64,000 nucleotides of DNA. Origin: Chloroflexota bacterium (lineage in GTDB: Bacteria; Chloroflexota; UBA6077; FW602-bin22; JBCLEL01). Positions 12,158 through 64,000 of this stretch are shown in pieces. The stretch covers positions 69,434 through 133,433 of the forward strand of contig CAXXUG010000011.1 of the NCBI GenBank assembly GCA_963664835.2. Direction: 5' to 3'. Position numbers and translations under genes: made by a program. Positions within the stretch are counted from its first letter, which is position 1; each line of letters starts with the position of its first letter. Below the pieces are notes generated by a model that was given only the letters and a program-made list of their open reading frames with translations, did no database searches and was not told the origin of the DNA.

Positions 12158-12197
12158 AGGGTCGCTCAATGCGGAAGTTATTGGGGGAAGACAGACG

Positions 12198-14663: not shown

Positions 14664-14704
14664 CGAGGGCGCTCAATGCGGAAGTTATTAGGAGAAGACA
14701 GACG

Positions 14705-17188: not shown

Positions 17189-17232
17189 TGGCCGGGCGCC
17201 GCGACACGAAATCTGCTAACGGAGGATATTCG

Positions 17233-19698: not shown

Positions 19699-19727
19699 GC
19701 CGATCCAAATGTAGATGACCTCTCTCG

Positions 19728-21998: not shown

Positions 21999-22101
21999 AC
22001 GGGGGACCGTTGGTGAAATGCGGTCTGACCACTTCACCTTGTGAGGATAGTCGGCCGTGGCGTATGGTTAGACATCGCCGTCCACCGGGGCGTCGCATAT
22101 A

Positions 22102-22410: not shown

Positions 22411-22494
22411 ATCATAGCCGCAGATCCATTGCGAGACTACGAAGGCGCGTGGCAACACTGACCGCATCGAACGGAGGTAGGAGGTAGCAAGACG

Positions 22495-22716
22495 ATGATC
22501 ACGGGCATGCACGGTATATTCTTCACACCTGAGGCGGAGGACGCCCGCAGCTTTGTCCAGGAGAAGCTGGGGTTTTCTCACGTCAACGTGGGAGGCGGAT
22601 GGCTGATCTTCGCCGCACCCAAGGCGGAGTTCGCTTTCAATCTTGGAGACGATACACACCACGAGATTTCTTTGGGGTTACTGGGATTTTCAACCTGTTC
22701 GCATAAGCCATACTAA
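22495..22716 (+). pseudogene. Truncated VOC/glyoxalase-fold gene fragment
   Basis: MITGMHGIFFTPEAEDARSFVQEKLGFSHVNVGGGWLIFAAPKAEFAF..HHEISL resembles the N-terminal half of ~115-aa VOC-family proteins. The expected C-terminal half was not found in any frame. Confidence 0.45.
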
Positions 22717-23083
22717 GGGGTTGAGTGGCTAACCTGGATAGCCGCGATCAGAGGATCGGTATGATGTTTGTCCTGACGATCTTCCTATCGGTGCCCTTAT
22801 TCGCGGTCTTCATGGGCTTATCGGCCTCTATTCTTGGAGGGGATCTTAAGGATTGGCCTGCCGTTCGGGTACCCTGCGCTGGGTTGCCGCCGACCAACTT
22901 GGCGGCGCTATCAGCGTACTGAACGGCACCTTCACCACTCTCTATGGTCCGCGTTACATACCCTACGGCGAGGACCGTGGGGCCGGACTAGACTGAACCC
23001 CGACCGCAAGCTCGCCTGCCAGAGCGAGGGCAAGGCAGCCCGCGTCTACGGGTACGCCTTGGGCAATCTCCCAACAACAGGGG

Positions 23084-23100
23084 CGCTCTGTTGAAGAGCG
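23084..23100. repeat. Left copy of a 17-bp direct repeat flanking the IS (putative target-site duplication)
   Basis: CGCTCTGTTGAAGAGCG is identical at 23084-23100 and 24764-24780. Confidence 0.6.
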
Positions 23101-24763
23101 TGTTTCATAATTCAGGCATGAGAGGAATTGGTAAAATTGAGGGAGGGAAGGTGATTGGAGGATAGGTAGATGCCACATAGACCGATGAGCCGAGAGCAGA
23201 TGTGGATAATGCCGCCGAGTCTTGAGGATTTGCTTCCAGCCGACCATCCAGCTCGATTCGTGGGGGAGTTCGTGGATGCCTTGGAGGAGGAGAACTGGGC
23301 GGAGTTGGGGGTGGACATAGAAGGAGGGCGACTGGGAGCGCCCGGATACCACCCACGAGGGCTGTTGAGCGTGTGGTTGTATGGGTTCATGACGGGGGTG
23401 CGGTCTAGTCGAAAGCTGGAGGCGGCGTGTGGGGAACAGATACCGTATCTGTGGCTGACGGGCTGTCAGCGCCCGGATCACGTGACTTTGTGGAGGTTCT
23501 ACAAGGCACATCGGCAGGGGATGAGAAAGCTGTTCGAACGGACAGTGAGGACAGCGGTGAGGATGAAGCTGGTGAGCTTGGCGGTGCAGGCGGTTGATGG
23601 TACGAGGGTGGGGGCGAACGCAGCGAGAGATAGGACCTACGATGCGGAGGGACTGCGCAGGCTGTTGAAGCGGTTGGAAGAGGCTATAAGGGAACTGGAG
23701 GCTCAGAATGAAGGTGGGGAAGATGCTGAACCGGCGCGGCTACCAAAGGAGTTGGCCCAGAAGAAAGGCCTGAGAGAACGGGTACGTGAGGCGATGGAGG
23801 AATTGGCAGGTGAAGGGGAGACGAAGCGGATCAACCTGACCGATGCAGAGGCTCAGTTCATGAAGACACGTCAGGGGATCATGCCGGCCTTCAACGCTCA
23901 AGCAATGGCCACGCCGGTGGAGTTAGAGGGGAAAGCGAGTGGCATGTTGGTCACAGCGGTTGAAGTGGTGGAAGAGACGAATGACTTCGCCCGATTGATC
24001 CCGATGCTGGAACAGGCCGAGGAAACCACGGATAGGAAAGCAGAAACGACGTTGGCGGATGCCGGTTATCATTCGGGGCGCAACTTGGAGGAATGCGCCA
24101 ATAGAGGTCAGGAGGTGGTGATGCCGGAGTCGCAGCACAAGGCGCTGAAGAGTCCGTATCACAAGGATCGATTCACATACGACGAGGATAGCGACAGCTA
24201 TATCTGTCCTCTAGGACAGAGACTTCGCTTCAGCACAATGAAGAAAACTCGTGGTGTACCGATGCGCCTGTATCGTGGCTCAGCGGCCTTGTGCCGTAAA
24301 TGTCCGGCCTTCGGGGTCTGTACCAAAGACCGGCGACATGGCCGTGCACTAGAGATAGGGCCACATGACCAAGTGCTGCGCAGTCATCGGGACTGGATGT
24401 GCACAGACGAAGCCCAGAAGAAATATAAGCAGAGAAAACAACTGGTGGAACCGGTATTCGGGATCATCAAAGAGCAGCAGGCGGGGCGAAGATTCCTGCT
24501 CCGCAGTAGGGCCAAGGTGGCAGCAGAGTGGACGATGTTGGCGACGGCCTTCAACCTGCGCACCCTCTGGCGGGCATGGCGATCTCGGACAGGCCCTCGA
24601 TGGCGCGTGGGTTGTGCAAATGGCGAAGTTTCGACCTATAGGTCGATCCTGGCGGGCATAATTGGTTCAGTTCTAAAGCTCTTGCCACTGCTCAGGACCG
24701 ATCTTCAGTCACTTTCACCCGGTGTACTTGCGTCGCGTCCACCACAATCCAATATCTGAAACA
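23101..24763 (+). mobile_element. IS1182-family insertion sequence (about 1.66 kb)
   Basis: A single transposase ORF fills the element. The termini are TGTTTCA...TGAAACA (7-bp perfect inverted repeat, about 11/16 when extended). It is flanked by the 17-bp direct repeat. The outer flanks rebuild a 15-bp-stem palindrome. Confidence 0.7.
23170..24759 (+). CDS. IS1182-family DDE transposase
   Basis: 529 aa. The N-terminal PPSLEDLLPADHPARFVGEFVDAL is an InsH-N-like domain. The C-terminal VEPVFGIIKEQQAGRRFLLRSRAKVAAEWTMLATAFNLRTL is typical of IS1182-family transposases. Confidence 0.9.
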   Translation: MPHRPMSREQMWIMPPSLEDLLPADHPARFVGEFVDALEEENWAELGVDIEGGRLGAPGYHPRGLLSVWLYGFMTGVRSSRKLEAACGEQIPYLWLTGCQRPDHVTLWRFYKAHRQGMRKLFERTVRTAVRMKLVSLAVQAVDGTRVGANAARDRTYDAEGLRRLLKRLEEAIRELEAQNEGGEDAEPARLPKELAQKKGLRERVREAMEELAGEGETKRINLTDAEAQFMKTRQGIMPAFNAQAMATPVELEGKASGMLVTAVEVVEETNDFARLIPMLEQAEETTDRKAETTLADAGYHSGRNLEECANRGQEVVMPESQHKALKSPYHKDRFTYDEDSDSYICPLGQRLRFSTMKKTRGVPMRLYRGSAALCRKCPAFGVCTKDRRHGRALEIGPHDQVLRSHRDWMCTDEAQKKYKQRKQLVEPVFGIIKEQQAGRRFLLRSRAKVAAEWTMLATAFNLRTLWRAWRSRTGPRWRVGCANGEVSTYRSILAGIIGSVLKLLPLLRTDLQSLSPGVLASRPPQSNI

Positions 24764-34344: not shown

Positions 34345-34452
34345 CGATTAGACATTAGTACGAAAATGCGCCCTCCAATCGACCTTAATGCCGGCAGTCC
34401 GCGAACAAAACGCGTCGATTTGTAGCCCGATGGTCGATAGCGGAACGAAATA

Positions 34453-34600
34453 ATGTAGCGCGGTCGAAGACTACGCGAGGCGAGGGGCTTGTCCCCCGCT
34501 CGAAGCAGTCCGGCTACCACGCCTAGACCCGAGACACCGTGTAGAAGACCCTCCAACCGGCGCCCCGGTTTTCACAACTTGGTGTGCCGGCGCAAGCCGG
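34453..34600 (+). repeat. Intergenic structured repeat, copy A (candidate sRNA or MITE-like element)
   Basis: The 49-nt core at 34453-34501 matches the reverse complement of 56568-56616 at 46 of 49 positions. A second conserved block at 34540-34579 matches 56491-56529. The core folds into hairpins, and the differences fall in a loop or give G-U pairs. Confidence 0.6.
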
Positions 34601-34706
34601 CATGGGCGATTGCTAGGTCTTGCTTTGTAACTCCCTGACGACTCCTGACCGTTTGTCGCCGCGAATTCGGGAGATGATGACCGAAGGCCCCTCGCCGCTT
34701 TGCGCC

Positions 34707-34886
34707 TAGATGAAGAACAGTCTAATCAGTATGCCCACCATGCCGACTATTAGCGCTCCAAGCAAGACATAAACAGCGGTAAACCGGGCATTCATGTTGT
34801 TGTTCATGTCGCCGATACGCTTGTCGATCTTTTCGCAAATTCCCTCTAGCTTGCTCACTCGCGCTGCAAGTGATGTTGCGGCCATA
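34707..34886 (-). CDS. Unlisted 59-aa ORF: small protein with a coiled N-terminus and a C-terminal TM helix
   Basis: Hand translation gives MAATSLAARVSKLEGICEKIDKRIGDMNNNMNARFTAVYVLLGALIVGMVGILIRLFFI*. A GAGGA SD lies about 6 nt upstream. The ORF falls below the 60-aa cutoff of the supplied track. Confidence 0.4.
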
Positions 34887-35323
34887 TCATCCTCGTGTGT
34901 CTTGCTGATGATCCAATAGTCTAAAGGCGTCTAACAACCCCAGCCTGCGGTTCTCATTTAGGCATGTATATTTCCGAAACAGTCCCCCGAGAGCCGCTCC
35001 TACACCGCGCGATGGGTTTGCTTGGACTCTTGTTCCGCAAAAAAGGTCCTTTTGCCCTGGCACTGGCAAGCAGCTGAATCTTGTGTCTCGAATCGGCGTT
35101 GCCGGCTGATGGCGTACTAATAACCGAACAGGTGTTTGGTATTATACCATTGTTCAAATGAGCCTGCGCAAGTGGATATTGCCTGACAGAGCGCGCCGAT
35201 TGTGCTGTCAGGACTCCAACGCCAATCTCGCCATGTTGAACCAAAGTGCGCCGGCTGCTTTCCAGGCGCGATAAGTCGGCCCGGCTAGACTGGCGATCTC
35301 ACGCGCCGGCTGAAAGCCCCGCG

Positions 35324-43524: not shown

Positions 43525-43962
43525 CTAGGAGATACCTGCTCGACAGAGCCACACTTCGCAGGGAGCATTTCTCAAGACGTAGCTGGCGGTATCCCCGACG
43601 CTGAACCGTCCATATTTCCGTTCGTAAGGGAGCCCAAATATGATGGTGTCTACCGCCCGTCCGACCGCCTCCTCGACGATCGCCGGTCCTTCGTGGCGAG
43701 CCTGTAGCAGTTCGCTGCTGATCGCAACCTTGGCCAACCTCCCGACTTCCAACGCCTCTTCTAAGATCTCTTCGCCCCGGTCAGCCTGCGAGCCTATCTC
43801 TGCATCAATGGGCAAGGACCGTTTTACTTCCATGACATGGATGACAAAAACCTGCGACTTATTTGAGCGGGCGGTTTCACAAGCCAGTCTGAGAGCCACT
43901 CTGTCGGCTTCGACGCCGGCAAGCGGCACAAGGATTCGTTCGATTCTCTTTGCGTTAGCCAA
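43525..43962 (-). CDS. Universal stress protein (UspA family)
   Basis: 145 aa. ILVPLAG......VFVIHVMEV...IIFGLPYE....GDTASYVLRNAPCEVWL. Confidence 0.85.
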   Translation of the reverse strand: MANAKRIERILVPLAGVEADRVALRLACETARSNKSQVFVIHVMEVKRSLPIDAEIGSQADRGEEILEEALEVGRLAKVAISSELLQARHEGPAIVEEAVGRAVDTIIFGLPYERKYGRFSVGDTASYVLRNAPCEVWLCRAGIS

Positions 43963-44173
43963 CTGTACCCAATTCCGCAGTTGGACGGGTCTTTGTCTGC
44001 CATCGGAGCGTGGTCAGTATACACCCACGTCCGTAACTCATTCAATGAGTTCCAGACGTCGGGCGAGCGCCGGATATGTGTCGCCTCTCCTATTAGAGTT
44101 GCCATTGCGCCCTCGCACGGGGACGCTACCGGACGGGAAAAGGACATGCGTCAGACAATCTCTTGTCTATAAT

Positions 44174-44857
44174 ATGTTGCGCAAATCGACCGACATCGGA
44201 TGGGCGAGGGAAGACGTGTCCGGCGGAAATCTTCTGGCAGACGCCACGATTCGCGAGTACCTGGCCAAGTTGGCATCCTCGTCGCCGACTCCGGGCGGTG
44301 GCAGCTGCGCCGCGCTCTCCGCGGCATTGGGTGTCGGCTTGATAAACATGGTTTGTGCGCTTACGGTCGGACGCAAGCGGTTTGCCCAGTACGAGTCCCT
44401 ATTGACCGATACGATTCAGAGTCTACAGAGTGTCTCGAACCGTCTGACCGAACTGGTCGATGAAGACGCCGACGCTTATGACCGCGTCATGGCAGCGTAC
44501 CGTTTGCCGAGGTCAAGCAAGGACGAGAGGGAGAGTCGCCGGCGCAGCATCCAAGAGGCGCTGATTCCCGCCACGGAGACGCCGCTCGAAATCGTCGATT
44601 GCTGCCAGGAAGCGCTTCGACTGGCGGCGCCCCTACTCGGCAAGCTGAATCCAAACGTCTTGAGTGATCTTGCCGCCGGCATTGACTTGGTCGCCGCAGC
44701 CGCTCATGCCGCTTCTCACAATGCCGATGTCAACATCGCTATGATGTCCGACGACGAGACGATTGCTCGTTACACGGAACGGACGAGGTCGGCACTTGGC
44801 GAGGTAGATGAACTAGCGGCCCGGCTAAGGGAATGCTTGTCTGGCGATCAGGATTAG
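44174..44857 (+). CDS. Cyclodeaminase/cyclohydrolase family protein (FTCD C-terminal domain-like; putative methenyl-THF cyclohydrolase)
   Basis: YLAKLASSSPTPGGGSCAALSAALGVGLINMV is the hallmark of this family. The long upstream extension of the ORF (from 43640) is antisense to usp and was discarded. Confidence 0.78.
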   Translation: MLRKSTDIGWAREDVSGGNLLADATIREYLAKLASSSPTPGGGSCAALSAALGVGLINMVCALTVGRKRFAQYESLLTDTIQSLQSVSNRLTELVDEDADAYDRVMAAYRLPRSSKDERESRRRSIQEALIPATETPLEIVDCCQEALRLAAPLLGKLNPNVLSDLAAGIDLVAAAAHAASHNADVNIAMMSDDETIARYTERTRSALGEVDELAARLRECLSGDQD

Positions 44858-45964: not shown

Positions 45965-47308
45965 TCAGGGCAGGCTGCCGGCCCGCGCCCCCGCGAACGC
46001 TTCAGCCCGACGGTCGTAACGTCTCAGGGCGATTACCGTCACGCCGGCGACAAGAATCAGGGCCACCGTACCGAAAATCAGGCCATCCATGTGCCACCTA
46101 TCGGCGAGCGGGCCACCTATTCCCGCGCCAACTAGCTGGCCTACACCCAGCAGCATTGAATAGGCGCCCATTACTGGACCCCGATGAACGGGATTTTCGT
46201 CCGATATGTCGGCGAGATAGGCCAGCGCCGCGGGAGTGAATCCTGCCAACACAAATACGGACACGCCCACAATCGCGGCCAGCACGATTATCTGCACAGT
46301 TGCGTGACTCGGGCTGTGATTGAGCGCGAAGAGGAACACGCCTTCGAACACGCCTCCACCGGTTGCTATCAGCATGATCGTAGTCTTCTTGATCCGCTCG
46401 AGCTGCAGGCTCCAGAAGAGCATTCCCGCTCCGAAAACCAGGCCGAAGAGTGCCATGCCATTGCCGATTTGATCGCCGGTAAAACCGCCGGCCAAGAGCT
46501 GCCCGGTCGCATCGTCCTCGGCCGCCTGCAGCACCGCGTGGGTCAACCACAGTCCGAGCACGCCATTCACCGCCAACCAGGCCGGCGCGAACCTAAGCAA
46601 ATGGACATTCTTCAATATGGACAAGGATTCGAGTATCCGGTGCCTGCTGCCGGAGCGACTCGAGACTTCTCGAACGGTCCAGAAGGCCACTGCGGCGAGA
46701 ATATATGATGCCAGGCTGACAAACAGCGCGTCGGGACCGAACTGGTCCCAGAGCTTGGCTCCCAGGACCGCACCTCCCAGCAACCCCCCTGCCGTGGCGA
46801 TCTCGTACACGCCGACGATTCGACCGCGTAGTCCGACATCTTCAACGCTGGTTTCCGCTATGTATCCGAGAGTAGCCGGTGCCGAGCTGGCGGTTGAGAA
46901 TCCCTTGAGAAAAAAGATTGTCAGGAGGATCAATATAGTGACGGTAGCCGGCAGTCTCACGTTTGACTCCAGCGAGACGCCGACGATGAGCAGTGTGATC
47001 GCCACCGCACCGCAGGCGACGCCCAGCTCCATGTAGCGCCGCCGGCCCGATCTGTCCGATAGCGCTCCGAATATCGGCGCCGTACTCAACTCCGCCAGAT
47101 AGAACGCGATCGTGAACAGGCTCAAGAGCGAGGCGCTGCCCAACGTGATGAGGCCAGCTACTCTGATGTCGCCTGAAACGCTGGGCAGATATGGACCCGC
47201 AAGAATCAACGCTGTGAGCGAGGCGGACGCCGCCGAAGCGATTCTCAGCAGCAAGGAGCCGACCAGGCATCCCCACATGGGCAGCGGAATCGAGAAGAGC
47301 CTAGTCAT
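45965..47308 (-). CDS. MFS transporter
   Basis: 447 aa with about 12 hydrophobic segments and the MFS loop motif GALSDRSGRRR. Confidence 0.85.
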   Translation of the reverse strand: MTRLFSIPLPMWGCLVGSLLLRIASAASASLTALILAGPYLPSVSGDIRVAGLITLGSASLLSLFTIAFYLAELSTAPIFGALSDRSGRRRYMELGVACGAVAITLLIVGVSLESNVRLPATVTILILLTIFFLKGFSTASSAPATLGYIAETSVEDVGLRGRIVGVYEIATAGGLLGGAVLGAKLWDQFGPDALFVSLASYILAAVAFWTVREVSSRSGSRHRILESLSILKNVHLLRFAPAWLAVNGVLGLWLTHAVLQAAEDDATGQLLAGGFTGDQIGNGMALFGLVFGAGMLFWSLQLERIKKTTIMLIATGGGVFEGVFLFALNHSPSHATVQIIVLAAIVGVSVFVLAGFTPAALAYLADISDENPVHRGPVMGAYSMLLGVGQLVGAGIGGPLADRWHMDGLIFGTVALILVAGVTVIALRRYDRRAEAFAGARAGSLP

Positions 47309-47421
47309 CAGCGGTCGACGTGGGTCACTAGCGCGAAGGCGCCGCGATCACGGGCAGCGGACAGCGGGCAGGGGATCCTGTTGGCGAACCTGGGACGATT
47401 CTAGGCTGTCGGTTTTCGCGG

Positions 47422-47889
47422 CTATCCAATTTCGTCAAGATCAGCGAGAACCGCCGCCGAGTGCCCACTCGGCGAAACCTGCGGATACGTCTTCTTGATC
47501 AGGCCATCCTCGCCAATAATGAACGTGCTGCGCAGCAACCCCGTGAACTTCCTTCCATCGCGCTCCTGCTCCCCCCACGCGCCGTAGGCTTCAATCGCCT
47601 CGCGGTTGGGGTCCGCAAGAAGAGGGAACTGCAGCGAAAACTTCTTGGCAAATGCCAGGTGTGAGTCCAAGTCGTCCGGGCTGACGCCGAGAACCTCGGC
47701 GTTACGTTCCGTGTACTTATCGTAGTCGTCACGAAACGCTGTCGACTCGACCGTTCAACCAGGTGTGTCATCCCTCCCGTAGAAATAGAGGACAACAGTC
47801 TTCTTACCGGCAAAATCGTCCAGGGATATGCTCCCGCCGGTCGAGGACGGTAGAGTGAACTTAGGTGCGGCCTCGCCGGCTTGGGGCAT
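47422..47889 (-). CDS. Bcp/PrxQ-type peroxiredoxin with in-frame TGA at the peroxidatic Cys position (candidate selenoprotein, or a nonsense pseudogene)
   Basis: Hand translation from ATG 47889 gives MPQAGEAAPKFTLPSSTGGSISLDDFAGKKTVVLYFYGRDDTPG-TGA-TVESTAFRDDYDKY...LGVSPDDLDSHLAFAKKF.... It aligns with E. coli Bcp FYPKAMTPGCTVQACGLRD. The TGA is at 47757-47755. The supplied ORF track shows only the C-terminal 82 aa. Confidence 0.65.
47725..47746 (-). promoter_or_regulatory. Possible bacterial SECIS-like hairpin downstream of the in-frame UGA
   Basis: GUCGACAGCGUUUCGUGACGAC starts 11 nt after the U of UGA. It forms a GUCG/CGAC stem plus CA/UG pairs, and the apical region contains GU about 20 nt from the UGA. 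Hand-folded only. Confidence 0.3.
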
Positions 47890-47942
47890 CCTGTTTCGAG
47901 TCAATCGTTACCTCGCTTTCGCACTGTTTGTCGCGGGCACAC

Positions 47943-48485
47943 TCAGCTAGTGGGCTTCCACTTGATGATGCATCCGATAGGCTTGGTCTCGGCCACCGGA
48001 ACCTCCCGGCCGGCCAGGATCGATTCTACCGCATCTCGGAAGTAGCTAACTGTGACGTCCTCGGGACGCTCGTAATTGTCGTCAAAAGCGCCGTGATACC
48101 GCATCCGCCTATCCTGATCGAACAGGAATATCTCCGGCGTACGCTCGGCGCCGTATGCCCGGGCGACCTCCTGGGACTCGTCGTAAAGATACGGGAACGG
48201 ATATCCCTTCGCATCGGCTCGCATCTTCATACGCTCGAAACCGTCGGCAGGCATGGCATTGGCGTCGTTCGAGCTGATTATGACCATTGAAAGGCCCTGA
48301 TCTGCGTAGTCACGTTGTGCATCGATCAACCGACCCTCCCAAGCCTGGGCGAACGGACAGTGGTTGCAGTTGAACACGATGGCAACCGCCTTTCTGTCGG
48401 CGAGAGCGCTCAGGCTGTGGTGATTGCCGTCGACGCCGGGCAGATCATAGCTGATCGCCTCGTCGCCTAAATTCAAGTTTGCCAA
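47943..48485 (-). CDS. Thioredoxin-fold (AhpC/TSA-redoxin-like) protein with a CNHCP motif
   Basis: AVAIVFNCNHCPFAQAW (CxxC) and the C-terminal PIGCIIKWKP typical of this redoxin subfamily. Confidence 0.8.
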   Translation of the reverse strand: MANLNLGDEAISYDLPGVDGNHHSLSALADRKAVAIVFNCNHCPFAQAWEGRLIDAQRDYADQGLSMVIISSNDANAMPADGFERMKMRADAKGYPFPYLYDESQEVARAYGAERTPEIFLFDQDRRMRYHGAFDDNYERPEDVTVSYFRDAVESILAGREVPVAETKPIGCIIKWKPTS

Positions 48486-48514
48486 TTCGTATCAAACCTC
48501 CATTCGGATCATAT

Positions 48515-48841
48515 TCAGTCCTTGGCGGCGAGTAGCCCACGCCGGATCGTGTCCTTCGAGGGCAAGGGGGAGATGCGGCCATCTTCGTGGCGGTAGGTTC
48601 TGCAGGTTAGTCCATAGTAAACGTCACCGACCGGCGGATCGATGTCACGTCCATCTACCAGGATGGTCGGTGATCCGGGAAACCCTATCTCGCGGGCCTT
48701 TTCGTCGGTTGTGATCTCGGTTCGGACAATCGTAGCTTCGATCCCTTCCTCCCGCATAGTGTCCTCCAACCGCTCTAAGCATTGGTGGTGCGAGGGGCAC
48801 TCTTCCCAGAAGAGGAAGTCGATTCTCTTCGGTCCTTCCAT
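48515..48841 (-). CDS. Small thioredoxin-fold protein of unknown function
   Basis: 108 aa. IDFLFWEECPSHHQC followed by GFPGSPTILVDG (cis-Pro-loop-like). It is first in the three-gene minus-strand redox cluster. Confidence 0.6.
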   Translation of the reverse strand: MEGPKRIDFLFWEECPSHHQCLERLEDTMREEGIEATIVRTEITTDEKAREIGFPGSPTILVDGRDIDPPVGDVYYGLTCRTYRHEDGRISPLPSKDTIRRGLLAAKD

Positions 48842-49163
48842 TGGATAAATCCTCGTTTCGTTGTCGATCGCTCGAAGTGATTATAAGTTAGCGTGAAACG
48901 GCCGTACAATGTGCGCCGCGCTCGGCAATCAGGCGGCTAACCGTCGAAAACCGGCCCTCCCGGGAATGGCGTAGTCGCGGATTCATCTCTGATTTCGGAC
49001 TGGAGCAAAAGAGCGCAGGCGCCCTCCAGAGATCAAGCGGAGATCGATATGCTTAAGAATTGATGGTCTGCCATCCATTTTTAGATGATCATGTCACTCT
49101 CACGATGCAACTTCGCATCACGCCTACGAGGGACCAAGTGTATAAGGAACAGGGCGGCCTGAC

Positions 49164-51308
49164 TTGGCAATAGAAACTTCGACGGTGCCGGGCGTAAGTA
49201 CCAAGCTTCATGTGACCGGAATGGATTGCTCCGATTGCGCTGCGTCCATCGGCCGAAACGTCGGCAAAATGGAGGGCGTAATCTCGGCCGAAGTCAGCTT
49301 CGCAACATCCAGAATGATCGTAGCCCACGACGAAACCCTGCCCGTCTCCAAGATCATTGCGACAGTAGAACAAAGTGGCTACGGCGCAACAGTCGCATTC
49401 GACGCTCAAGAGTCGGACACAAAAACGGAGGGCATGTGGATACCTGAGAGCCGAGTGGTGGAGACTTGTGCCTCAGGACTGGCGACGGCGGCAGGCTTCG
49501 TCGCAATCGCGGTCAACGCACCTGTGGTTGCCCAGGGACTTTTCGGGATAGCAATCGTGTTCGGCGGCTATCGCTTTGCCCGCCGTGGCGCTTATTCATT
49601 GGTTCGCTCCCGCGCGCTGGACATGAACGTGTTGATGTCGCTTGCTGTAGTTGGCGCCATCATTCTCGGGCATTGGGAAGAAGCGGCCGTAGTATCGTTT
49701 CTTTTCGCCCTCGGGAACTTGCTCGAGTCCCATACCATCGGGCGTGCGCGTGGCGCGATCAACGACCTGATTAAGCTAACGCCGGCGGAGGCGCGGGTTC
49801 GGCGGGGCGACCGGCGAGTCTCGCTGCCATCGAGCGAAATCAAAGTGGACGACGTGATTGTCCTGGCCGCCGGCGAGCGTATCCCTCTCGATGGACAGGT
49901 AATTGCCGGCGGCTCGTCGGTGGACCAGGCTCCCATCACCGGTGAATCGATGCCTGTCGATAAGAGCATCGGCGACGAAGTCTTCGCCGGTTCTATCAAT
50001 GGCGAAGGATATCTCGAGGTTAAAGTAAGCCGGCCATATCACGAGAATACGATCAATCGCATAGTCCGGTCGGTAGAGGAGGCCCAGGCAAGGAAAGCGC
50101 CAATCGAACGCTTGGTTGACAGCTTCGCCCGGCGTTACACGCCGGCAGTTGTCGCCATCGCGATCTTGATGATGTTGGTTCCCTGGCTCGGCTTCGGCCA
50201 GACATTCGAATCGGGATTCTACCGGGCGTTGGTTCTCCTGGTAATCGCTTGCCCATGCGCTTTGGTGATCTCGACGCCGGTTGCGACTGTCGCGGGCATC
50301 GCCCGAGCGGCGCGGGCCGGCCTGCTGATAAAGGGTGGGGCATACCTGGAGGCCGCTCGCTCGATTCGGGCGGTCGCCTTCGACAAGACCGGTACGCTTA
50401 CACACGGACGGCCGGCGGTCGTGGATATTGTGCCGGTAGATGGCACGCCAGTAGACGACGTGCTTAGAATCGCGGCAGCTATCGAGTCTCAATCGAGCCA
50501 TCCATTTGCTCTGGCGATACAGTGGCACCACCGGCACACCGGCGCATCGATGGCGCCGGCATCAGACTTCGCCGTGTTGACCGGAAGGGGAGCGCGAGCA
50601 AGGATTGACGGCCGGCTCTGCCACATAGGCAGCGGTCGGCTCTTCGACGAGCTGCGCGTAGACTACAGCGAGCTGAGCGAGGCGATGACGCACCACGAGT
50701 CGACGGGCCGGACTACGCTACTGGTGGCTGCAGATGGCAGGTGCTTGGGACTTGTCGCCGTCGAAGACACGATCAGACCGGAGGCGCGTGGGGTGGTGGA
50801 AGCCTTGCATCGGGCCGGGGTAAGACCGGTCGTGATACTCTCCGGCGACCATGAACGAACGGCCCGAGTGGTAGCTGACCGCGTTGGCTCCGACGAGGTG
50901 AGAGCGGGGTTGCTGCCGGAGCAGAAGTCAGGCGCTATCGCCGGACTGATCGCTCAACACGGGCCGGTGGCAATGATCGGTGATGGCGTCAATGACGCGC
51001 CGGCGCTGGCCAGCGCCTCCGTTGGCATGGCCATGGGCGTCGTTGGGTCGGATGTCGCGCTCGAGACCGCCGACATCGCGCTGATGTCCGACGATCTGAG
51101 CAAGATCCCGGCCGTCATCCGGTTCAGTGGCACGGCAGTTGAGACTATCCGGCAGAACATTGCGATTTCACTGGCCGCGAAAGTGGTCTTCGTTGCGCTC
51201 GGCGGTTTGGGGTTCGTCGGACTATGGATAGCAGTCTTCGCCGACATGGGAATTTCGCTGTTGGTGACCGCCAATGCCATGCGGCTCCTGCGTTCACGGG
51301 ACCTCTGA
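49164..51308 (+). CDS. Heavy-metal translocating P1B-type ATPase (Zn/Cd/Pb-type by motif)
   Basis: HMA domain GMDCSDCAASI, CPC in CPCALVISTP, DKTGTLT, GDGVNDAPAL, and a TM8-like FADMGISLLVTANAMRLL. TTG start at 49164. Confidence 0.92.
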   Translation: MAIETSTVPGVSTKLHVTGMDCSDCAASIGRNVGKMEGVISAEVSFATSRMIVAHDETLPVSKIIATVEQSGYGATVAFDAQESDTKTEGMWIPESRVVETCASGLATAAGFVAIAVNAPVVAQGLFGIAIVFGGYRFARRGAYSLVRSRALDMNVLMSLAVVGAIILGHWEEAAVVSFLFALGNLLESHTIGRARGAINDLIKLTPAEARVRRGDRRVSLPSSEIKVDDVIVLAAGERIPLDGQVIAGGSSVDQAPITGESMPVDKSIGDEVFAGSINGEGYLEVKVSRPYHENTINRIVRSVEEAQARKAPIERLVDSFARRYTPAVVAIAILMMLVPWLGFGQTFESGFYRALVLLVIACPCALVISTPVATVAGIARAARAGLLIKGGAYLEAARSIRAVAFDKTGTLTHGRPAVVDIVPVDGTPVDDVLRIAAAIESQSSHPFALAIQWHHRHTGASMAPASDFAVLTGRGARARIDGRLCHIGSGRLFDELRVDYSELSEAMTHHESTGRTTLLVAADGRCLGLVAVEDTIRPEARGVVEALHRAGVRPVVILSGDHERTARVVADRVGSDEVRAGLLPEQKSGAIAGLIAQHGPVAMIGDGVNDAPALASASVGMAMGVVGSDVALETADIALMSDDLSKIPAVIRFSGTAVETIRQNIAISLAAKVVFVALGGLGFVGLWIAVFADMGISLLVTANAMRLLRSRDL

Positions 51309-57503: not shown

Positions 57504-60131
57504 ATGCCACGACGCAAGAAGGCACAAACCAAGCGGCCGATAGAGTCGTACGACCACCGGGACAAGGAGCGCCTCAATAACCCGCCGGTGGGTCTCGTTA
57601 CGCCGGATACCGACAAAGACGCCGGCAAGAAGGCCTACGCCTACGATCCACATCTGGACCCACAGTTGCAATGGGCGGGCAAGGGGGAGCACACCTCTTT
57701 TGAAGTGCCGACCGTGTCGTTACACGTGCACGAGCGCATAGACCCACGCACGATCATCGAGGCCGTGCGCAAGCGGAACGGCGACGCGGGACTTCTGCAG
57801 GGAAGTCTTTGGGAGCTACCTGAGGAGAACCCACCGGTCCGAGAAGCCATCGAGTTCTACCGGCACCGGCACAACTGGACTAACCGTCTCGTCGCCGGCG
57901 ACAGCCTGCTGGTTATGAACAGCCTTCTAGAGAAGGAGGGCATGACCGGCAAGGTGCAGATGGTGTATATCGACCCGCCCTATGGCATCCGCTACGGCTC
58001 CAACTTCCAGCCGTTCGTCAACAAACGCGGCGTGACAGACGGCCGCGACGACGACTTAACCAATGAGCCGGAACAAATACGTGCATTCCGCGACACCTGG
58101 GAGTTGGGCATCCACTCCTACCTCAGCTACCTGCGGGACCGCCTACTGCTCGCGAGAGGATTGCTGGTGAATAGTGGTTCGTGTTTTGTCCAGATTAGCG
58201 ACGAGAACCTCCACCGTGTGCGGATGTTAATGGATGAAGTATTTGGGGTTGACAACTTCGTCGGCGTGATTTCTTTTACTAAAGCATCTGCTCAAAGCTC
58301 GAACTACCTCTCCACGTCATCCGACTATTTGATTTGGTATAGCCGCGAGAAATCTCAGTTGAAGTATCGTCCTCTTTTCCTCGACAAAATATCCGGGCAG
58401 GCTGGTGCAACAAACTATACGAACATAGAATCCAGTAGCGGTGAGACGTGGCGTCGAATGAGCCGCCAAGAACAAGATACTCCGTCGGTCATCCCCCAAG
58501 GCTGGAAAGTCTTCTCTTTGGACAACCTCTACGGGACACGGCCACCGAATCCTTCCGATTTGGGGCCATACGTTTTTAACGGTAAAACTTATAACGGCGA
58601 CAAGCGACGCTGCTGGAAAACTGATAAGAAGGGATTAGACCATCTTGCTATTGCCGGGAGATTGAGGCAATCTGGCAGAGGTTTGTATTACAAGAGATAC
58701 TTTAAAGACTTTCCTGTCTATCCTATGACAACCAATTGGACGGATACCGCTAGCAGTTTTATGGCAGATAAAGTGTATGCTGTTCAGACCACGACTAAAG
58801 TAATCCAGCGATGTGTTCTGATGACCACGGACCCTGGGGACCTCGTATTCGACCCTACCTGTGGCTCTGGCACAACAGCATTCGTAGCCGAACAGTGGGG
58901 CCGGCGCTGGATTACATGTGACACGTCAAGGGTGGCCATTGCCATCGCCCAGCAGCGGCTCATGACCGCAACCTACGACTACTACGAGCTAGCTCACGCG
59001 GACGAGGGAGTTGGCAGCGGCTTTAGCTACAAGACAGTGCCCCACGTCACTCTGGGTTCAATCGCGAACAACCCGGAGATCAAGGAGGGCATGACCCAAA
59101 CGGAGATCGATACTGCTATCGCTCGGCACGCGCCCCAGGAGACATTGTACGACCAGCCTTTGGTAGACAACAGCAAGAAGCGGGTAAGCGGTCCATTCAG
59201 CGTGGAGGCAGTGCCCGCCCCCGTCGTAAAGCCTCTTGACGAGATTGCAGACGGAGTACCGCCCGCCGACGACACAGTGGCGCGCGCCGGGGAGACGCTG
59301 CGGCAGTCGGACTGGCGGGACGAACTACTCAGGACCGGCATCCGGGGCAAGGCGGATCAGTTCATCCAATTTGCGCGGCTGGAGCCATTGCCGGGCTGCC
59401 GGCACCTGCACGCCGACGGACAGACGCGTCCAAACGACCGCGGCACCAACTACATCCGGGAAGGAGGCGCGGCTGCCGCAACCCAGCGGCTCGTCGTATC
59501 GTTCGGCCCCGATCATGCGCCGTTAGAGCAGCGCCAAGTGGAACTCGCCATCATGGATGCGCAGACGTTAGTGCCCAAGCCGAAGGTAATAGTATTTGCC
59601 GCCTTCCAGTTCGATCCCGAGGCGGCCAAGGACATCGACGAGACCAACTGGCCGGGCGTGACGCTGTTGAAGGCTCAGATGAACGCTGATCTGCTCACCG
59701 ACGACTTAAAGAAAAAACGTGCCAGCAACGAGAGCTTTTGGCTTATCGGACAGCCGGATGTCGTGCTGCATCAGATTAGCAAAGGCTATAGTATCGGCAA
59801 ATGGCAAGTGTACGTGCGCGGGTTCGATTATTACAACACCAAGACCGGCGACGTCGAATCGGGAGGGGAGGACAAGATAGCGATGTGGCTCCTGGATCCG
59901 GACTATGACGGTCGGAGCCTATTTCCGCGTCAGGTGTTCTTTCCCATGGCCGGTGCTAACGATGGGTGGGCGCGATTGGCCCGCAATCTGAAAGCGGAAA
60001 TCGACGACGACCTTATCGACGCCTACCGAGGCACAGTCTCTTTGCCGTTTGAGGCCGGCGATCATAGGCGAATCGCCGTCAAGATCGTAGACGACCGTGG
60101 CATCGAGAGCCTCCGCATCCTGACGATCTGA
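57504..60131 (+). CDS. mod: Type III-like R-M DNA methyltransferase (beta-class N6A/N4C, Mod)
   Basis: Motif IV VYIDPPYG (nt 57972-57983) precedes motif I FDPTCGSGTTAF (nt 58788-58811). An AT-richer putative target-recognition segment lies between them. 875 aa. Confidence 0.88.
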   Translation: MPRRKKAQTKRPIESYDHRDKERLNNPPVGLVTPDTDKDAGKKAYAYDPHLDPQLQWAGKGEHTSFEVPTVSLHVHERIDPRTIIEAVRKRNGDAGLLQGSLWELPEENPPVREAIEFYRHRHNWTNRLVAGDSLLVMNSLLEKEGMTGKVQMVYIDPPYGIRYGSNFQPFVNKRGVTDGRDDDLTNEPEQIRAFRDTWELGIHSYLSYLRDRLLLARGLLVNSGSCFVQISDENLHRVRMLMDEVFGVDNFVGVISFTKASAQSSNYLSTSSDYLIWYSREKSQLKYRPLFLDKISGQAGATNYTNIESSSGETWRRMSRQEQDTPSVIPQGWKVFSLDNLYGTRPPNPSDLGPYVFNGKTYNGDKRRCWKTDKKGLDHLAIAGRLRQSGRGLYYKRYFKDFPVYPMTTNWTDTASSFMADKVYAVQTTTKVIQRCVLMTTDPGDLVFDPTCGSGTTAFVAEQWGRRWITCDTSRVAIAIAQQRLMTATYDYYELAHADEGVGSGFSYKTVPHVTLGSIANNPEIKEGMTQTEIDTAIARHAPQETLYDQPLVDNSKKRVSGPFSVEAVPAPVVKPLDEIADGVPPADDTVARAGETLRQSDWRDELLRTGIRGKADQFIQFARLEPLPGCRHLHADGQTRPNDRGTNYIREGGAAAATQRLVVSFGPDHAPLEQRQVELAIMDAQTLVPKPKVIVFAAFQFDPEAAKDIDETNWPGVTLLKAQMNADLLTDDLKKKRASNESFWLIGQPDVVLHQISKGYSIGKWQVYVRGFDYYNTKTGDVESGGEDKIAMWLLDPDYDGRSLFPRQVFFPMAGANDGWARLARNLKAEIDDDLIDAYRGTVSLPFEAGDHRRIAVKIVDDRGIESLRILTI

Positions 60132-60142
60132 GAACGGGATTC

Positions 60143-61417
60143 ATGCTGACAGAATTGAAGCTCTCGAATTTCAGAATCTTCGACGACGAAGTCACTGTCC
60201 GATTCAGGCCGATTACTGTTCTCATTGGTCGAAATAGTTCGGGAAAGTCGTCGATCATAAAATTTCTTCTGATGCTGCAACAGTCACTTGGCCCCGGCAT
60301 GCCTCAGTTCCTCTCTCCCGAGGGAGATAGGGTTAAATTGGGCGTTTTCTCAGAACTTAAGAACTCGCTGACTCGCAAGAAAAACCTCAAGTTTGAACTA
60401 ACTGCAAAGAGTCCAACAACTCATCCTGGCGTTGTCATATTTCGAACCTTGCGCCTACGCGAAAATGTAGACTTCAGCAAACTGCTATTCAAGACCAATG
60501 CCACGGTGTCCTACGGCAAGAAAACTAGGAGAGGGCATGCCCGTCACTGGTTAGCCCATGAAAGCGAAGGCGCCAACTTCCTAAAAGTAGCTACCGAGAT
60601 TCTTGATGACTCTACTTTTTTGGATCAGGCAACCGATGTTTGGGACCAAGGTGATAAGTCACTCGAACGCCTTAAGGAATCGTTCGCTCGTTCTTTTGCG
60701 GAGCATCAACTCCTAGACACGTTGCGCTATCAGCTCAACTCAATTCGTCATCTCTCACCGGTTAGAGATGAGTCCCAAAGAGTCATCATTGCATCCCCTC
60801 CTCCGATCGATTACGTGGGGCAGAGAGGACAGTATGTCTTACCCCATCTCCAGCAGATGACAACCGAATACAAGGATAGATACGATTTCATTTTGCCGCA
60901 CCTAGATACCGTAGCGGGTATCGGGGATATTGAGTTCAAGAAATCAACAGGATACGTGAGTCAGGCCTTCGCACGAAACAAAGCGACTGGGGCAGACGTG
61001 CTCATAGCGGACTATGGATTCGGAGTGAGTCAGTGCCTGCCAATTTTCGTTCAGGGCGCCGTGATGCCTCGATATACTGCGTTGATGGTCGAGCAACCCG
61101 AAGCCCAGCTTCACCCCACGGCTCAACTTGAAATGGGAAGTTTTTTTGCCGATCTGTGGAGAAAACGAAGAGTCGAGTCCATCATCGAGACCCATAGCGA
61201 TAACATACTTCTCAGACTACGACGACTGATCGCGAATGGGCAACTTTCTCACGAAGATGTTTCAGTGGCGTTCTTTACGTTCGATCCGGAATACGAAAAT
61301 ATGCCGATTGTCAAGAACCTAGACATCAACGAAGACGGCTCCATGCAGCCTGGCCTGCCAATGGAATTCTTTGGCGCCGATGTCATAGAAGGACTGAGCC
61401 TCGGAGCGCGGGTTTGA
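60143..61417 (+). CDS. ABC-type/AAA ATPase with a DUF3696-like C-terminus
   Basis: Walker A GRNSSGKSS (nt 60227-60253), Walker-B-like ALMVEQPEAQLHP, and H-loop region IETHSDNILLRLRRLI. It starts 11 nt after mod. Confidence 0.85.
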   Translation: MLTELKLSNFRIFDDEVTVRFRPITVLIGRNSSGKSSIIKFLLMLQQSLGPGMPQFLSPEGDRVKLGVFSELKNSLTRKKNLKFELTAKSPTTHPGVVIFRTLRLRENVDFSKLLFKTNATVSYGKKTRRGHARHWLAHESEGANFLKVATEILDDSTFLDQATDVWDQGDKSLERLKESFARSFAEHQLLDTLRYQLNSIRHLSPVRDESQRVIIASPPPIDYVGQRGQYVLPHLQQMTTEYKDRYDFILPHLDTVAGIGDIEFKKSTGYVSQAFARNKATGADVLIADYGFGVSQCLPIFVQGAVMPRYTALMVEQPEAQLHPTAQLEMGSFFADLWRKRRVESIIETHSDNILLRLRRLIANGQLSHEDVSVAFFTFDPEYENMPIVKNLDINEDGSMQPGLPMEFFGADVIEGLSLGARV

Positions 61418-61983
61418 CCAGCGCGTTTTTTGAAGAATGCGTGGCAATTGACACTAACGTGTTTGAGCACCTATTGAATCCTCAAGTTAATACTGAATCG
61501 CACATAAGCGGTTTGCTCCAAGATCTTCAAAGACAAGAAATCGCCCTTATTCTCGATGATAAGAAACGTGTCTCGGGCGAGTATGAGAACCGCATCACGC
61601 CTGCCATCCGCAATGCTGATGTTATGCGCGCAGAATTGCCCATTCTGCGTTATTGGTTTTTGGATGCACCACGACTCGAAGTCCCCCTAGACTTGCGTGA
61701 CCAGCTTATGCAAACGATCAAAGCAGTGATTAATGAATCTTCTGAGAGCGTGGATAGGATTCTTGTCTATGTGGCCTTCAAGAAGGGAAAAACTCTCATT
61801 ACCAATGATGAGACTCATATAGTAATGGGACCACCTACGGAGCAAGCGCAAGCTCCGCGACGGGCCAGACTGCTGCGTCGCACGAAGAAAATACGAGCGG
61901 CAGGATCTTGCATTTTGACCTCTAAAGAAGCGTACACAGAGATTAATCGATGTCCCACACCACCATCGATCGACTCATCGTAA
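61414..61983 (+). CDS. PIN-like domain protein (putative nuclease)
   Basis: The N-terminal VAIDTNVFEHL carries the first PIN acidic residue (D13, nt 61450-61452). A late LITNDETH motif is also present. The TTG start overlaps the ATPase stop (TTGA). The 3' end overlaps the res start by 34 nt. Confidence 0.6.
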   Translation: MTSAFFEECVAIDTNVFEHLLNPQVNTESHISGLLQDLQRQEIALILDDKKRVSGEYENRITPAIRNADVMRAELPILRYWFLDAPRLEVPLDLRDQLMQTIKAVINESSESVDRILVYVAFKKGKTLITNDETHIVMGPPTEQAQAPRRARLLRRTKKIRAAGSCILTSKEAYTEINRCPTPPSIDSS

Positions 61984-64000
61984 ACTCACCGTATGCAGAG
62001 CCGAAACGGCACTGGGTATATGAGCGTGAGACACGGCTATTCGATCTCGCAACGGGCCGGCGTCCCGCCGGGTACCTGATAGCGTCGGGTGACTCCAAGA
62101 GCTTCGACGACCCTGGTGTGTTCGTGGAGATTCCTCTGGTAAACCGGATTCGGCAGCGGGTGCGGGCATGGCGTGAGGCCGGATATCCAGGCGTGACCAG
62201 TATCACAAAGCGCCTGCTGGAATTTTGGACGGACACAGAGGAGTTCGACGCGCGCCGCTTCTTCTTCTGCCAACTGGAAGCGGCGGAGACACTGATATGG
62301 CTCACCGAAGCGCCGGTTGCTGAGAGGGTGGGCATCTACGTACCCTCGGACGGTGGCGACTTTGAGCGTCTCTGTTCCAAGATGGCGACCGGATCGGGAA
62401 AGACGGTCGTCATGGCCATGATCATCGCTTGGCACTTACTGAACAAGGTCACCTATCCCCAGGACACTCGATTCTCCAAGAATGTTCTGGTGGTCGCGCC
62501 CGGCCTGACGGTCAAGAGCCGCCTCGCCGTCCTGGAGCCGTCACATCCTGAGAACTATTACGAGGCGTTCCGTGTGGTGCCATCACCTCTACTAGATCAG
62601 CTCCGGCAAGGTAAGGTCATCATTCGTAACTGGCATGCGCTCAACTGGGAGACGGACGAGCAGATCAACAAGAAGCGCAGCGTCGACAAACGCGGAGCCA
62701 AGAGTGATGAAGCATACGTTAGAGACGTTCTAGGTGAGATGGCTAACGCGAACAACTTGTTGGTCGTCAACGATGAGGCACACCACGCTTGGCGCGTTCC
62801 GGCTGAGTCCAAGGTCAAGGGTGTTGCCAAGTCCGACATCGAGGAAGCGACCAAGTGGGTCGGCGGTCTTGATCGGATTCACCGAGCACGCGGGATTCTA
62901 ACGTGTTACGATTTCTCAGCTACGCCGTTCGCTCCATCCGGCAGGAGAAGCTCGGAGGAGGCGTTGTTCAACTGGATAGTGAGCGACTTTGGGTTGAACG
63001 ATGCCATAGAGTCCGGGTTGGTCAAGACACCACGGGTCGTAGTCCGCGACGATGGGCAACTGGATGCTACGACCTTCAAATCACGCCTATACCACATCTA
63101 CAACGATCCGGAAGTTAAGGACGACCTGAACCGCAAGGCTGAACCCCACGAGCCTCTACCTGACCTCGTAAATAACGGATATTACCTGCTCGGGTACGAC
63201 TGGAGGGAAACGGCGAGGAGTTGGCAAAACGCTGGATTCAAGACGCCACCGGTTATGATCACGGTCGCGAACCGCACCGAAACAGCAGCAAGAGTTAAAT
63301 TCGCTTTTGACCGCAAAAGGGTTTTGATCGACGAACTGTGTGAACGTGAACGCACACTGCACATCGATTCCAAGGTGCTGAAGCGTGCCGAGGAATCCGA
63401 AGAGCCAATTGCCAGGGTAGTTGCGAACACCGACGCCGCGAGTAATGGCGCAGCCGTTCAGAAGCTGACCGCAGACCAGAGGGCCGAGCAACTGCGCCGG
63501 ATGGTGGATACGGTGGGCCGGCCGGGGCAGCCCGGTGAGGAGATACAGAACGTCATTTCCGTGGGAATGCTGTCCGAAGGATGGGACGCAAAGACTGTCA
63601 CGCACATTATGGGCTTGCGTGCGTTTACGAGTCAGCTTCTGTGCGAGCAGGTGGTGGGACGAGGTCTGCGCCGCACGGCCTACGACGTGAACCCTGAGAC
63701 GGACCTATTCGAACCTGAGTATGTCAACATATTCGGTGTCCCGTTCACGTTTCTTCCGCACGAGTCTGATGATAGTGTCGTACCGAAGCCTCCGACACCC
63801 AAGACCGCGATCGAGCCGGTGCCGGATAGGGCCGAGCTCGAGATTACGTGGCCCAACATCTTGCGAGTCGAGCACGTCTACCGGCCACGACTCCTTCTCG
63901 ATTGGGAGAAGGTTAGTCCCTTGGAGCTAAACGCCAACCAGACCGCGGAGTTCGCCGAACTCGCGCCAATTGTCGCTGGGAAGCCCGACATCTCAAGAAT
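61950..64000 (+). CDS. res: Type III-like restriction enzyme Res subunit (SF2 helicase), 3'-partial at the window edge
   Basis: The frame is open from ATG 61950 to the end of the window, so it is not in the supplied track. N-terminus MSHTTIDRLIVNSPYAEPKRHW. Walker A is KMATGSGKT, motif II is VVNDEAHHAW, and motif VI is EQVVGRGLRR. Confidence 0.85.
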   Translation, partial: MSHTTIDRLIVNSPYAEPKRHWVYERETRLFDLATGRRPAGYLIASGDSKSFDDPGVFVEIPLVNRIRQRVRAWREAGYPGVTSITKRLLEFWTDTEEFDARRFFFCQLEAAETLIWLTEAPVAERVGIYVPSDGGDFERLCSKMATGSGKTVVMAMIIAWHLLNKVTYPQDTRFSKNVLVVAPGLTVKSRLAVLEPSHPENYYEAFRVVPSPLLDQLRQGKVIIRNWHALNWETDEQINKKRSVDKRGAKSDEAYVRDVLGEMANANNLLVVNDEAHHAWRVPAESKVKGVAKSDIEEATKWVGGLDRIHRARGILTCYDFSATPFAPSGRRSSEEALFNWIVSDFGLNDAIESGLVKTPRVVVRDDGQLDATTFKSRLYHIYNDPEVKDDLNRKAEPHEPLPDLVNNGYYLLGYDWRETARSWQNAGFKTPPVMITVANRTETAARVKFAFDRKRVLIDELCERERTLHIDSKVLKRAEESEEPIARVVANTDAASNGAAVQKLTADQRAEQLRRMVDTVGRPGQPGEEIQNVISVGMLSEGWDAKTVTHIMGLRAFTSQLLCEQVVGRGLRRTAYDVNPETDLFEPEYVNIFGVPFTFLPHESDDSVVPKPPTPKTAIEPVPDRAELEITWPNILRVEHVYRPRLLLDWEKVSPLELNANQTAEFAELAPIVAGKPDISR

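Follow-up and report, generated by a model that had tools for sequence, protein, structure and literature searches.

The 64-kb window analysed here (the whole stretch of DNA under study) carries on its minus strand a reading frame for a Bcp/PrxQ-type peroxiredoxin with one in-frame TGA. Translation, matches to Pfam, NCBIfam and PDB, and syntenic orthologs place this putative selenocysteine (Sec)-containing peroxiredoxin gene at 47422-47904. Read from ATG 47889, the frame runs through 44 codons to the TGA at 47757-47755 and then through 110 codons to a TAG at 47424-47422; the 155 codons, Sec codon included, that the initial annotation had reported can be read directly off the translation. Its choice of start codon is less secure. 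The frame is indeed open from ATG 47889, but a GAGG Shine-Dalgarno-like box (47911-47914, minus strand) lies 6 nt upstream of a TTG at 47904, five codons 5′ of the ATG, and the sequence around the box, GAGGTAACGATTGACTCGA, is common to all five lineage members whose upstream regions were compared. Because this box is conserved, TTG 47904 may be the true start, which gives a gene of 160 codons, Sec codon included. Other TGA-interrupted genes were sought in the window, and no convincing case was found.

The gene belongs to a same-strand cluster. The first gene of the cluster (48515-48841, minus strand) encodes a DF family (seleno)protein in its Cys form, which scores 94.1 bits against NCBIfam NF049942 (cut-off 70). 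Next comes a gene (47943-48485, minus strand) for a thioredoxin-fold AhpC/TSA-like protein with a C-N-H-C motif, recognised by the Pfam models AhpC-TSA, Redoxin and Thioredoxin_8. The peroxiredoxin gene lies 53 nt downstream of this CxxC gene (38 nt if counted from the TTG start) in the same orientation, and is itself followed by a gene for an MFS transporter. The order DF protein, CxxC protein, peroxiredoxin, MFS transporter is conserved in three related loci (L001-L003), where the peroxiredoxin orthologs are 85-87% identical. The window is colinear with these loci over at least 20 kb (in L002, over the whole 4.2 kb) at about 80% nucleotide identity, which marks them as members of one lineage that have diverged, as opposed to copies.

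On sequence grounds the product is a peroxiredoxin of the BCP/PrxQ subfamily. The Pfam AhpC-TSA model (PF00578) matches residues 5-133 with 130.7 bits, covering model positions 2-123 of 124 and running straight across the TGA. The closest PDB chains are all Bcp/PrxQ proteins, with E-values down to 7e-30, and the best NCBIfam matches are to NF053650 PrxQ (135.2 against a cut-off of 260) and NF006960 thioredoxin-dependent thiol peroxidase (128.3 against 140). When the protein is aligned with 29 of its nearest Cys-type homologs, the TGA falls on the invariant column of the peroxidatic Cys, C45. This agrees with the earlier assignment of the UGA to the peroxidatic Cys of Bcp/PrxQ, and both the alignment and the conservation described below point to the codon as the Sec codon at the peroxidatic (Cp) position of a TxxU motif, here T-P-G-U. 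T42, U45 and R120 all lie on invariant columns, so that the catalytic Thr, Cp and the conserved Arg are all present. Cys-type Bcp/PrxQ proteins such as E. coli Bcp, Xanthomonas campestris Bcp (3gkk, 5iiz) and Sulfolobus Bcp1 (3drn) belong by sequence to the same subfamily and share the length and the conserved Thr and Arg of the window protein, whereas the latter would carry Sec in place of Cp, lacks a resolving Cys (CR) at +5 and does not reach the equivalog cut-offs of NCBIfam. PrxU of Eubacterium acidaminophilum (NF040737), which had been cited as a precedent, is likewise a Sec-containing peroxiredoxin but is of a different Prx subfamily; with 37.7 bits against a cut-off of 270 the window protein is not a PrxU ortholog, and we rejected this assignment.

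The context of the active site departs from the usual pattern. Where the PxxxTxxC motif has Pro, the window protein has Gly, and the lineage as a whole has G, A or I. Among the matches listed, this Pro is kept in 96 and absent in 25 of 121 Sec-type genes, and it is present in at least 90% of the aligned Cys-type homologs; its replacement by Gly might have an effect on catalysis. Where the initial annotation had seen a Ser at the usual resolving-Cys position, the alignment puts Thr in that column (+5) and Ser one column before it. A Cys at +5 is also missing in 66 of the 121 Sec-type genes among the matches listed. Bcp variants without a resolving Cys (the 1-Cys type) are known, and a missing CR is compatible with membership of the subfamily. 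The window protein has no Cys residue at all, and the predicted Sec would be its sole redox-active residue. In the catalytic cycle that we propose, the selenolate at position 45 would attack the peroxide and be converted to a selenenic acid, which would in turn be reduced by an external thiol, since a protein without Cys must be recycled from outside. The best candidate for this role is the CxxC thioredoxin-like protein encoded immediately upstream (47943-48485), which is probably the reductant.

We then looked for relatives of the gene. A protein database search with the full-length query returned nothing above 58% identity, and every match was a Cys-type Bcp; a database of 5.8 billion protein sequences held no full-length member of the lineage, only one 78-residue fragment. 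At the DNA level, an unbiased scan of one genome per species, using peptide patterns that leave out the Sec site, identified four relatives (L001-L004) that are 87, 86, 85 and 42% identical. Those at 86% and 87% are two complete Chloroflexota MAG chromosomes (complete genomes of the lineage include OZ244845.1 and OZ253568.1), L002, at 85%, is a 4.2-kb contig, and the 42%-identical relative is an alphaproteobacterial contig. In all four the TGA is at exactly the same codon and the frame is open after it. A further relative, the read-assembly contig L134, was found with the post-TGA protein as query through a single truncated gene call of 78 residues, and it too has the TGA. Thus the close homologs do not carry TGC or TGT in its place: TGA is kept in five of five relatives sampled without selecting for TGA (the four genomes and L134, 42-87% identical), the nearest Cys-type proteins being those at 58%.

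The Sec-type family extends well beyond this lineage. Scanning metagenomes with a degenerate, TGA-containing pattern, F-Y-x-x-D-x-T-x-G-TGA-T-x-[EQ], gave at least 120 stretches; as this set is selected for TGA by design, it shows the size of the Sec-type family and not the frequency of TGA. Each of the matches listed is a Bcp homolog with 30-56% identity to the window protein, and at least 92 open codons follow the TGA in 109 of the 110 listed matches that are not cut by a contig end.

Selection on the protein is the same on both sides of the TGA. By the Nei-Gojobori method, dN/dS is 0.07 for codons 1-44 and 0.075-0.13 for codons 73-155, with dS at about 1 in both. The codons after the TGA are as constrained as those before it and are therefore translated, with purifying selection of equal strength. 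The codons in between behave differently at synonymous sites: dS is 0.057 in codons 46-72 compared with about 1.1 in the flanks. A comparison of the window with L001 shows synonymous differences at 1 of 27 conserved codons in this segment and at 44 of 108 elsewhere (p = 1.5e-4). For the window and L134 the counts are 1 of 20 in the corresponding RNA block and 48 of 104 elsewhere (p = 3e-4). At the nucleotide level this near-invariant block spans nt 19-75 after the UGA (47683-47739, minus strand), where the window and L134 agree at 56 of 57 positions, compared with 78% over the gene as a whole. There is, then, a conserved RNA structure just 3′ of the UGA, under selection beyond the needs of protein coding.

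Two hairpins fill the block. The first, H2 (47704-47739, minus strand; nt 19-54 after the U of the UGA), is a 10-bp hairpin, GCGUUUCGUG/CACGGAACGU, with a loop of 11-16 nt, a folding energy of -13.5 to -16.5 kcal/mol and a pairing probability of about 1.0. In L002 a compensatory change replaces the U27-A46 pair by C27-G46, and in L134 a single loop change, U39C, is seen despite the 78% overall identity. The spacer that holds H2 is more stable than its synonymous shuffles (z = -2.4). The second, H3 (47684-47702, minus strand; nt 56-74), is an 8-bp hairpin, ACGCCGAG-GUU-CUCGGCGU, with an energy of -13.0 kcal/mol, again a pairing probability of about 1.0, and a G-U-U apical loop 60 nt from the UGA. 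All five lineage members carry H3 without a change; for the window gene taken by itself, 7% of synonymous shuffles yield an 8-bp GU hairpin. Rfam searches of the window had no match at gathering thresholds, and on 47600-47800 nothing relevant came up even at E-values of up to 10. RNAalifold gave a poor consensus for five sequences, whose hairpins are not positionally homologous and among which L004 had been entered 3 nt out of register.

A different hairpin, H1 (47725-47746, minus strand; nt 12-33 after the U of the UGA), had been put forward as a possible SECIS element in the initial annotation. Neither folding nor the relatives support it. H1 is possible on paper, but it does no better than expected by chance and is not the structure that is conserved: its energy is -4.3 kcal/mol in isolation and its pairing probability in the ensemble is 0.00, its energy falls to -0.9 kcal/mol in L002 with the lower stem broken, and in L134 the mismatches A12.C33 and A15.C30 break two of the lower-stem pairs. 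On these grounds H1 was rejected.

We also compared the RNA downstream of the UGA across the family of Sec-type Bcp genes (116 genes among the matches listed). The most stable 40-nt windows start at -6 to +12 relative to the UGA in these genes. Two broad tests speak against an RNA signal or are of little help: family-wide, the total minimum free energy for the 81 nt that follow the UGA does not drop below that of synonymous shuffles (z = -0.35, with controls at -0.25 to -0.39), a negative result, and a loose scan in the style of the bacterial SECIS model passes 67% of real sites and 16-58% of control sites and is thus weakly discriminating. A more specific criterion was an uninterrupted hairpin of at least 7 bp, with a loop of 3-6 nt and GU at loop position 1 or 2. 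Such a GU-loop hairpin follows the UGA within 93 nt in 47% of genes (54 of the 116 listed). Synonymous shuffles of this region have it in 9% of cases, and in no more than 15% in any of 200 replicates. Native and shuffled frequencies are alike in the upstream control region (6% and 5%) and in the downstream one (1% and 1%). None of 12 Cys-type Bcp genes has one after the Cys codon (p = 0.0012). Viral contigs were a source of Cys-type controls, where a DNA pattern gave 8 loci, 3 of them usable, and a profile one partial locus. Base composition is not the reason for the difference in hairpins, since of the two sets it is the Cys-type one that has the higher GC content.

The loops of these hairpins lie at preferred distances from the UGA. 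Three groups were distinguished among the 116 listed genes: one with a median of 17 nt, within the canonical range (n = 30), one at exactly 38 nt (n = 17) and one with a median of 60 nt (n = 20, a few of which are really canonical hairpins with a bulge that the criterion missed). Across the family, selection thus favours GU-loop hairpins about 17, 38 or 60 nt downstream of the UGA. Hairpins of at least 6 pairs within nt 50-80 sit only at a few discrete centres, namely 65.0 (ten genes, including the lineage of the window), 61.5 (seven) and 72 (five). All ten loops at centre 65 begin with GG or GU, which the selection of the set did not require. A hairpin at the position of H3, with different stem sequences, is present in six distant homologs; four of the eight pairs have changed on both sides, and the observed covariation score was reached in none of 500 shuffles, a figure inflated by ascertainment since the set was chosen for a hairpin at that centre. 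In the centre-65 set 93.8% of cells are paired; sliding the partner lowers this to 22-50%. The spacers preceding the distal hairpins appear to be structured as well: over nt 4-54 of 14 distal-hairpin genes the mean z is -1.79 relative to synonymous shuffles, with 11 of 14 below -1.64, and in two control regions none of the 14 falls below this value. The "effective distance" across folded spacers converges on 17-19 nt, although this test is weak because GC-rich spacers fold anyway.

No gene for the Sec machinery was seen in the regions scanned. Pfam searches with 44 long ORFs of the window gave no match to a selA-, selB- or selD-type domain, and no tRNA of any kind was identified in its 64 kb, in agreement with the earlier statement that the window has no selA, selB, selC or selD; none of these four genes, and no tRNA, was found in the 20-kb loci of the relatives. 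Two Dehalococcoidia (Chloroflexota) MAGs have been reported with 46 and 49 selenoproteins (PMC13326102). Sec decoding in Chloroflexota is therefore well documented, which provides context and not proof for the source genome.

These observations bear on whether the TGA marks a living selenoprotein gene. The one in-frame stop, together with a window that is empty of Sec machinery, is what a nonsense pseudogene would look like, in which a Cys codon had mutated to TGA and the gene was dead or dying. Such a gene would hardly have kept its TGA in five lineage members that have diverged to a dS near 1, and also in an alphaproteobacterial gene of 42% identity, no relative has frameshifts or extra stops, dN/dS downstream of the TGA is about 0.1, and a conserved RNA element follows the TGA directly. 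Nor are the relatives copies of one contaminant, given their nucleotide divergence of about 20%. We give the pseudogene reading practically no credence. The UGA might instead be read through without selenium, by a near-cognate Trp or Cys tRNA or in a reassigned code, or the two halves might be made separately, and the fact that the genome's Sec machinery was seen in no locus scanned agrees with this. However, TGA is the commonest stop in the window, ending 20 of its 39 long ORFs, including both upstream neighbours; it works here as a normal stop codon under the standard code, and reassignment was rejected on this basis. Leaky read-through would leave unexplained both the preference for TGA over TGC or TGT across phyla and the selection of GU-loop hairpins in TGA forms only, and a Prx fold split at its active site would not function as separate halves. 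Decoding without selenium, in any of these forms, is very unlikely. The conserved TGA, the constrained downstream frame and the constraint on the RNA 3′ of the TGA argue strongly for what the initial annotation had suspected, a Sec-containing Bcp/PrxQ split by ORF calling and not a pseudogene; judged from these comparisons the gene very probably encodes a true selenoprotein of the known "Prx, TxxU" family.

If the gene is a selenoprotein gene, UGA 47757-47755 would be decoded as Sec by Sec-tRNA(Sec) delivered by SelB, and SelB would be recruited by the conserved RNA element within the next 75 nt of coding sequence. Which part of the element SelB would bind is less clear-cut. The published model of the bacterial SECIS has an apical loop of 3-9 nt with a G in the first two loop positions, on a stem of 4-16 bp located 16-37 nt from the UGA, with an energy of -7.5 kcal/mol or lower (PMC13188914). 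None of H1, H2 and H3 agrees with it fully. H3 fits in loop, stem and energy but lies outside the 16-37 nt at a distance of 60 nt. It resembles the E. coli fdhF-type SECIS and the bSECISearch consensus in its short G-C-rich stem, its small loop starting with G-U and its location in the coding sequence 3′ of the UGA. In contrast to the canonical element, its loop is 60 nt away (16-37 in the model) and a second selected hairpin stands in between; about a quarter of the listed Sec-Bcp genes (30 of 116) have such a hairpin at some 17 nt, the canonical distance. The arrangement that we favour has H3 as the SelB-binding hairpin and the folded H2 as its spacer, which would shorten the path from the UGA to the H3 loop to about 15-24 nt instead of 60. 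That H3 with its H2 spacer forms the working SECIS is a tentative model, to which we would give slightly less than an even chance. Alternatively, the protein could be a selenoprotein for which H2 itself is the SECIS, H3 being accessory (for example a ribosome-pausing element) or unrelated. The H2 loop begins with G, its distance of 27 nt to the UGA falls within the 16-37 nt of the model, its energy of -13.5 to -16.5 kcal/mol is ample, it shows the compensatory change in L002, and its sequence is as conserved as that of H3. Its loop of 11-16 nt nevertheless exceeds the 3-9 nt allowed (PMC13188914), and no G[G/U] motif is common to the H2-type loops of distant two-hairpin genes, whereas the H3-type loops start with GG or GU in ten of ten cases where this was not required. 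We consider a SECIS at H2 rather unlikely.

Returning to H3 as the binding site, the arrangement may have a wider distribution. A G-U or G-G loop 56-60 nt from the UGA is found in about 10-15% of the listed Sec-Bcp genes, including that of the window. This raises the possibility, which we put forward with some reserve and as short of probable, of a distinct distal class of bacterial SECIS, in which a hairpin with a G-U or G-G loop would lie beyond 16-37 nt and a selected spacer hairpin would restore the working distance. About 13% of bacterial selenoprotein genes have been found to be without a canonical SECIS, and no structural model for them is offered in these reports (PMC13188914, PMC13326102, PMC12013277).

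The gene itself belongs to an already known selenoprotein family: "Prx (PF00578, TxxU)" has been an established prokaryotic family since the mid-2000s (PMC13188914, PMC2398784, PMC5029168), with 253 Sec and 7,348 Cys forms in the GOS data (PMC2398784) and 91 genes in 78 organisms in a 2016 survey (PMC5029168). Like the members of that family, the window protein has the AhpC/TSA fold with a predicted Sec for the peroxidatic Cys in T-x-x-U (here T-P-G-U), and the family likewise has many Cys homologs and members in uncultured bacteria, often missed by gene callers. This lineage differs from the family in lacking the Pro of PxxxTxxU (with Gly, Ala or Ile in its place), the resolving Cys or indeed any Cys, and in a conserved downstream RNA that departs from the canonical bacterial SECIS model. 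Its less ordinary features are an active-site context free of Cys and without the motif Pro and, first and foremost, an RNA element of two hairpins in a distal position. Should this arrangement prove to be a working SECIS, it would relax the distance rule of bacterial SECIS predictors, and a distal class, if real, would provide a structural model for part of the approximately 13% of genes that these predictors miss. A Sec-only peroxiredoxin next to a CxxC partner would offer a clean system in which to study the recycling of a one-Sec peroxidase. Standard gene calling splits this gene in two and routinely cuts members of the family, with the consequence that the redox capacity of these Chloroflexota is under-annotated.

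The very probable selenoprotein gene Sec-Bcp, a Bcp/PrxQ-type peroxiredoxin gene on the minus strand (47422-47904) with UGA as its probable Sec codon, lies within a conserved cluster of redox and metal genes at 45965-51308. On the minus strand the order of genes in this cluster is DF-family protein, CxxC thioredoxin-like protein, Sec-Bcp and MFS transporter, with a P1B-type heavy-metal ATPase carrying an HMA domain (49164-51308) transcribed divergently from them. For several of the families represented here, Sec-containing members are known in other organisms (PMC5029168). The DF-family protein (108 aa; 48515-48841, minus strand) matches the NCBIfam model for DF family (seleno)proteins, NF049942, with 94 bits against a cut-off of 70, and is the Cys form of the family, with the motif CPSHHQC. 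The earliest report of the family as a selenoprotein, under the name "hypothetical protein DF", dates from 2025 (PMC12013277).

Elsewhere in the window, 9689-21998 holds a tandem array of four plus-strand ORFs, paralogues of 821-837 aa arranged head to tail, which is followed on the same strand by an FG-GAP/ASPIC repeat protein of 756 aa. Weak glycosyl hydrolase family 2 domains were found in both of the two tandem ORFs that were scanned. An ORF-poor stretch (21999-23169) adjoins a plus-strand DDE transposase with DDE_Tnp_1_6 and DUF772 domains (23170-24759), which is probably an insertion sequence. Although the window is densely coding, about 1 kb at 34345-35323 is nearly devoid of open reading frame and could represent one of those decayed genes to which the initial annotation alluded. 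At the end of the window (57504-64000) a DNA methylase (875 aa), an AAA_15/AbiEii-like ATPase (424 aa) and an ORF of 189 aa stand consecutively, and at 60-64 kb GC drops to 0.53, down from about 0.58. The region may be a horizontally acquired restriction-modification or defence islet.

Among relatives' loci with TGA at the same codon, L002 is a 4.2-kb contig (JAAXGO010000474.1) labelled as part of a Rhodothermales MAG. Since the Chloroflexota window and the relatives' loci L001 and L003 are colinear with it along its whole length, and its nucleotide sequence is about 83% identical to that of the window, the contig is probably mis-binned. The 405-aa protein encoded at 43640-44857 (plus strand), with a formiminotransferase-cyclodeaminase domain at its C-terminus, aligns with L001 and L003 at residues 1-118 and 192-405 only; its middle is either lineage-specific or disrupted in these relatives.

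In some Sec-Bcp homologs (L117, L057, L005, L012 and others) the open frame reaches far beyond the Prx domain, upstream or downstream, with 630 codons 3' of the TGA in L117; such extended frames could reflect fusion to other domains, or they could be artefacts that arise from open frames upstream. Among the metagenome matches listed, 17 Sec-Bcp genes, including those of L005, L009, L010, L019, L044, L049 and L056, have in common a GU-loop hairpin exactly 38 nt from the UGA (for example UCCCUCG-GUU-CGAGGGA), before which stands another hairpin without a GU loop. This 38-nt arrangement is an intermediate form of the two-hairpin layout seen in the window.
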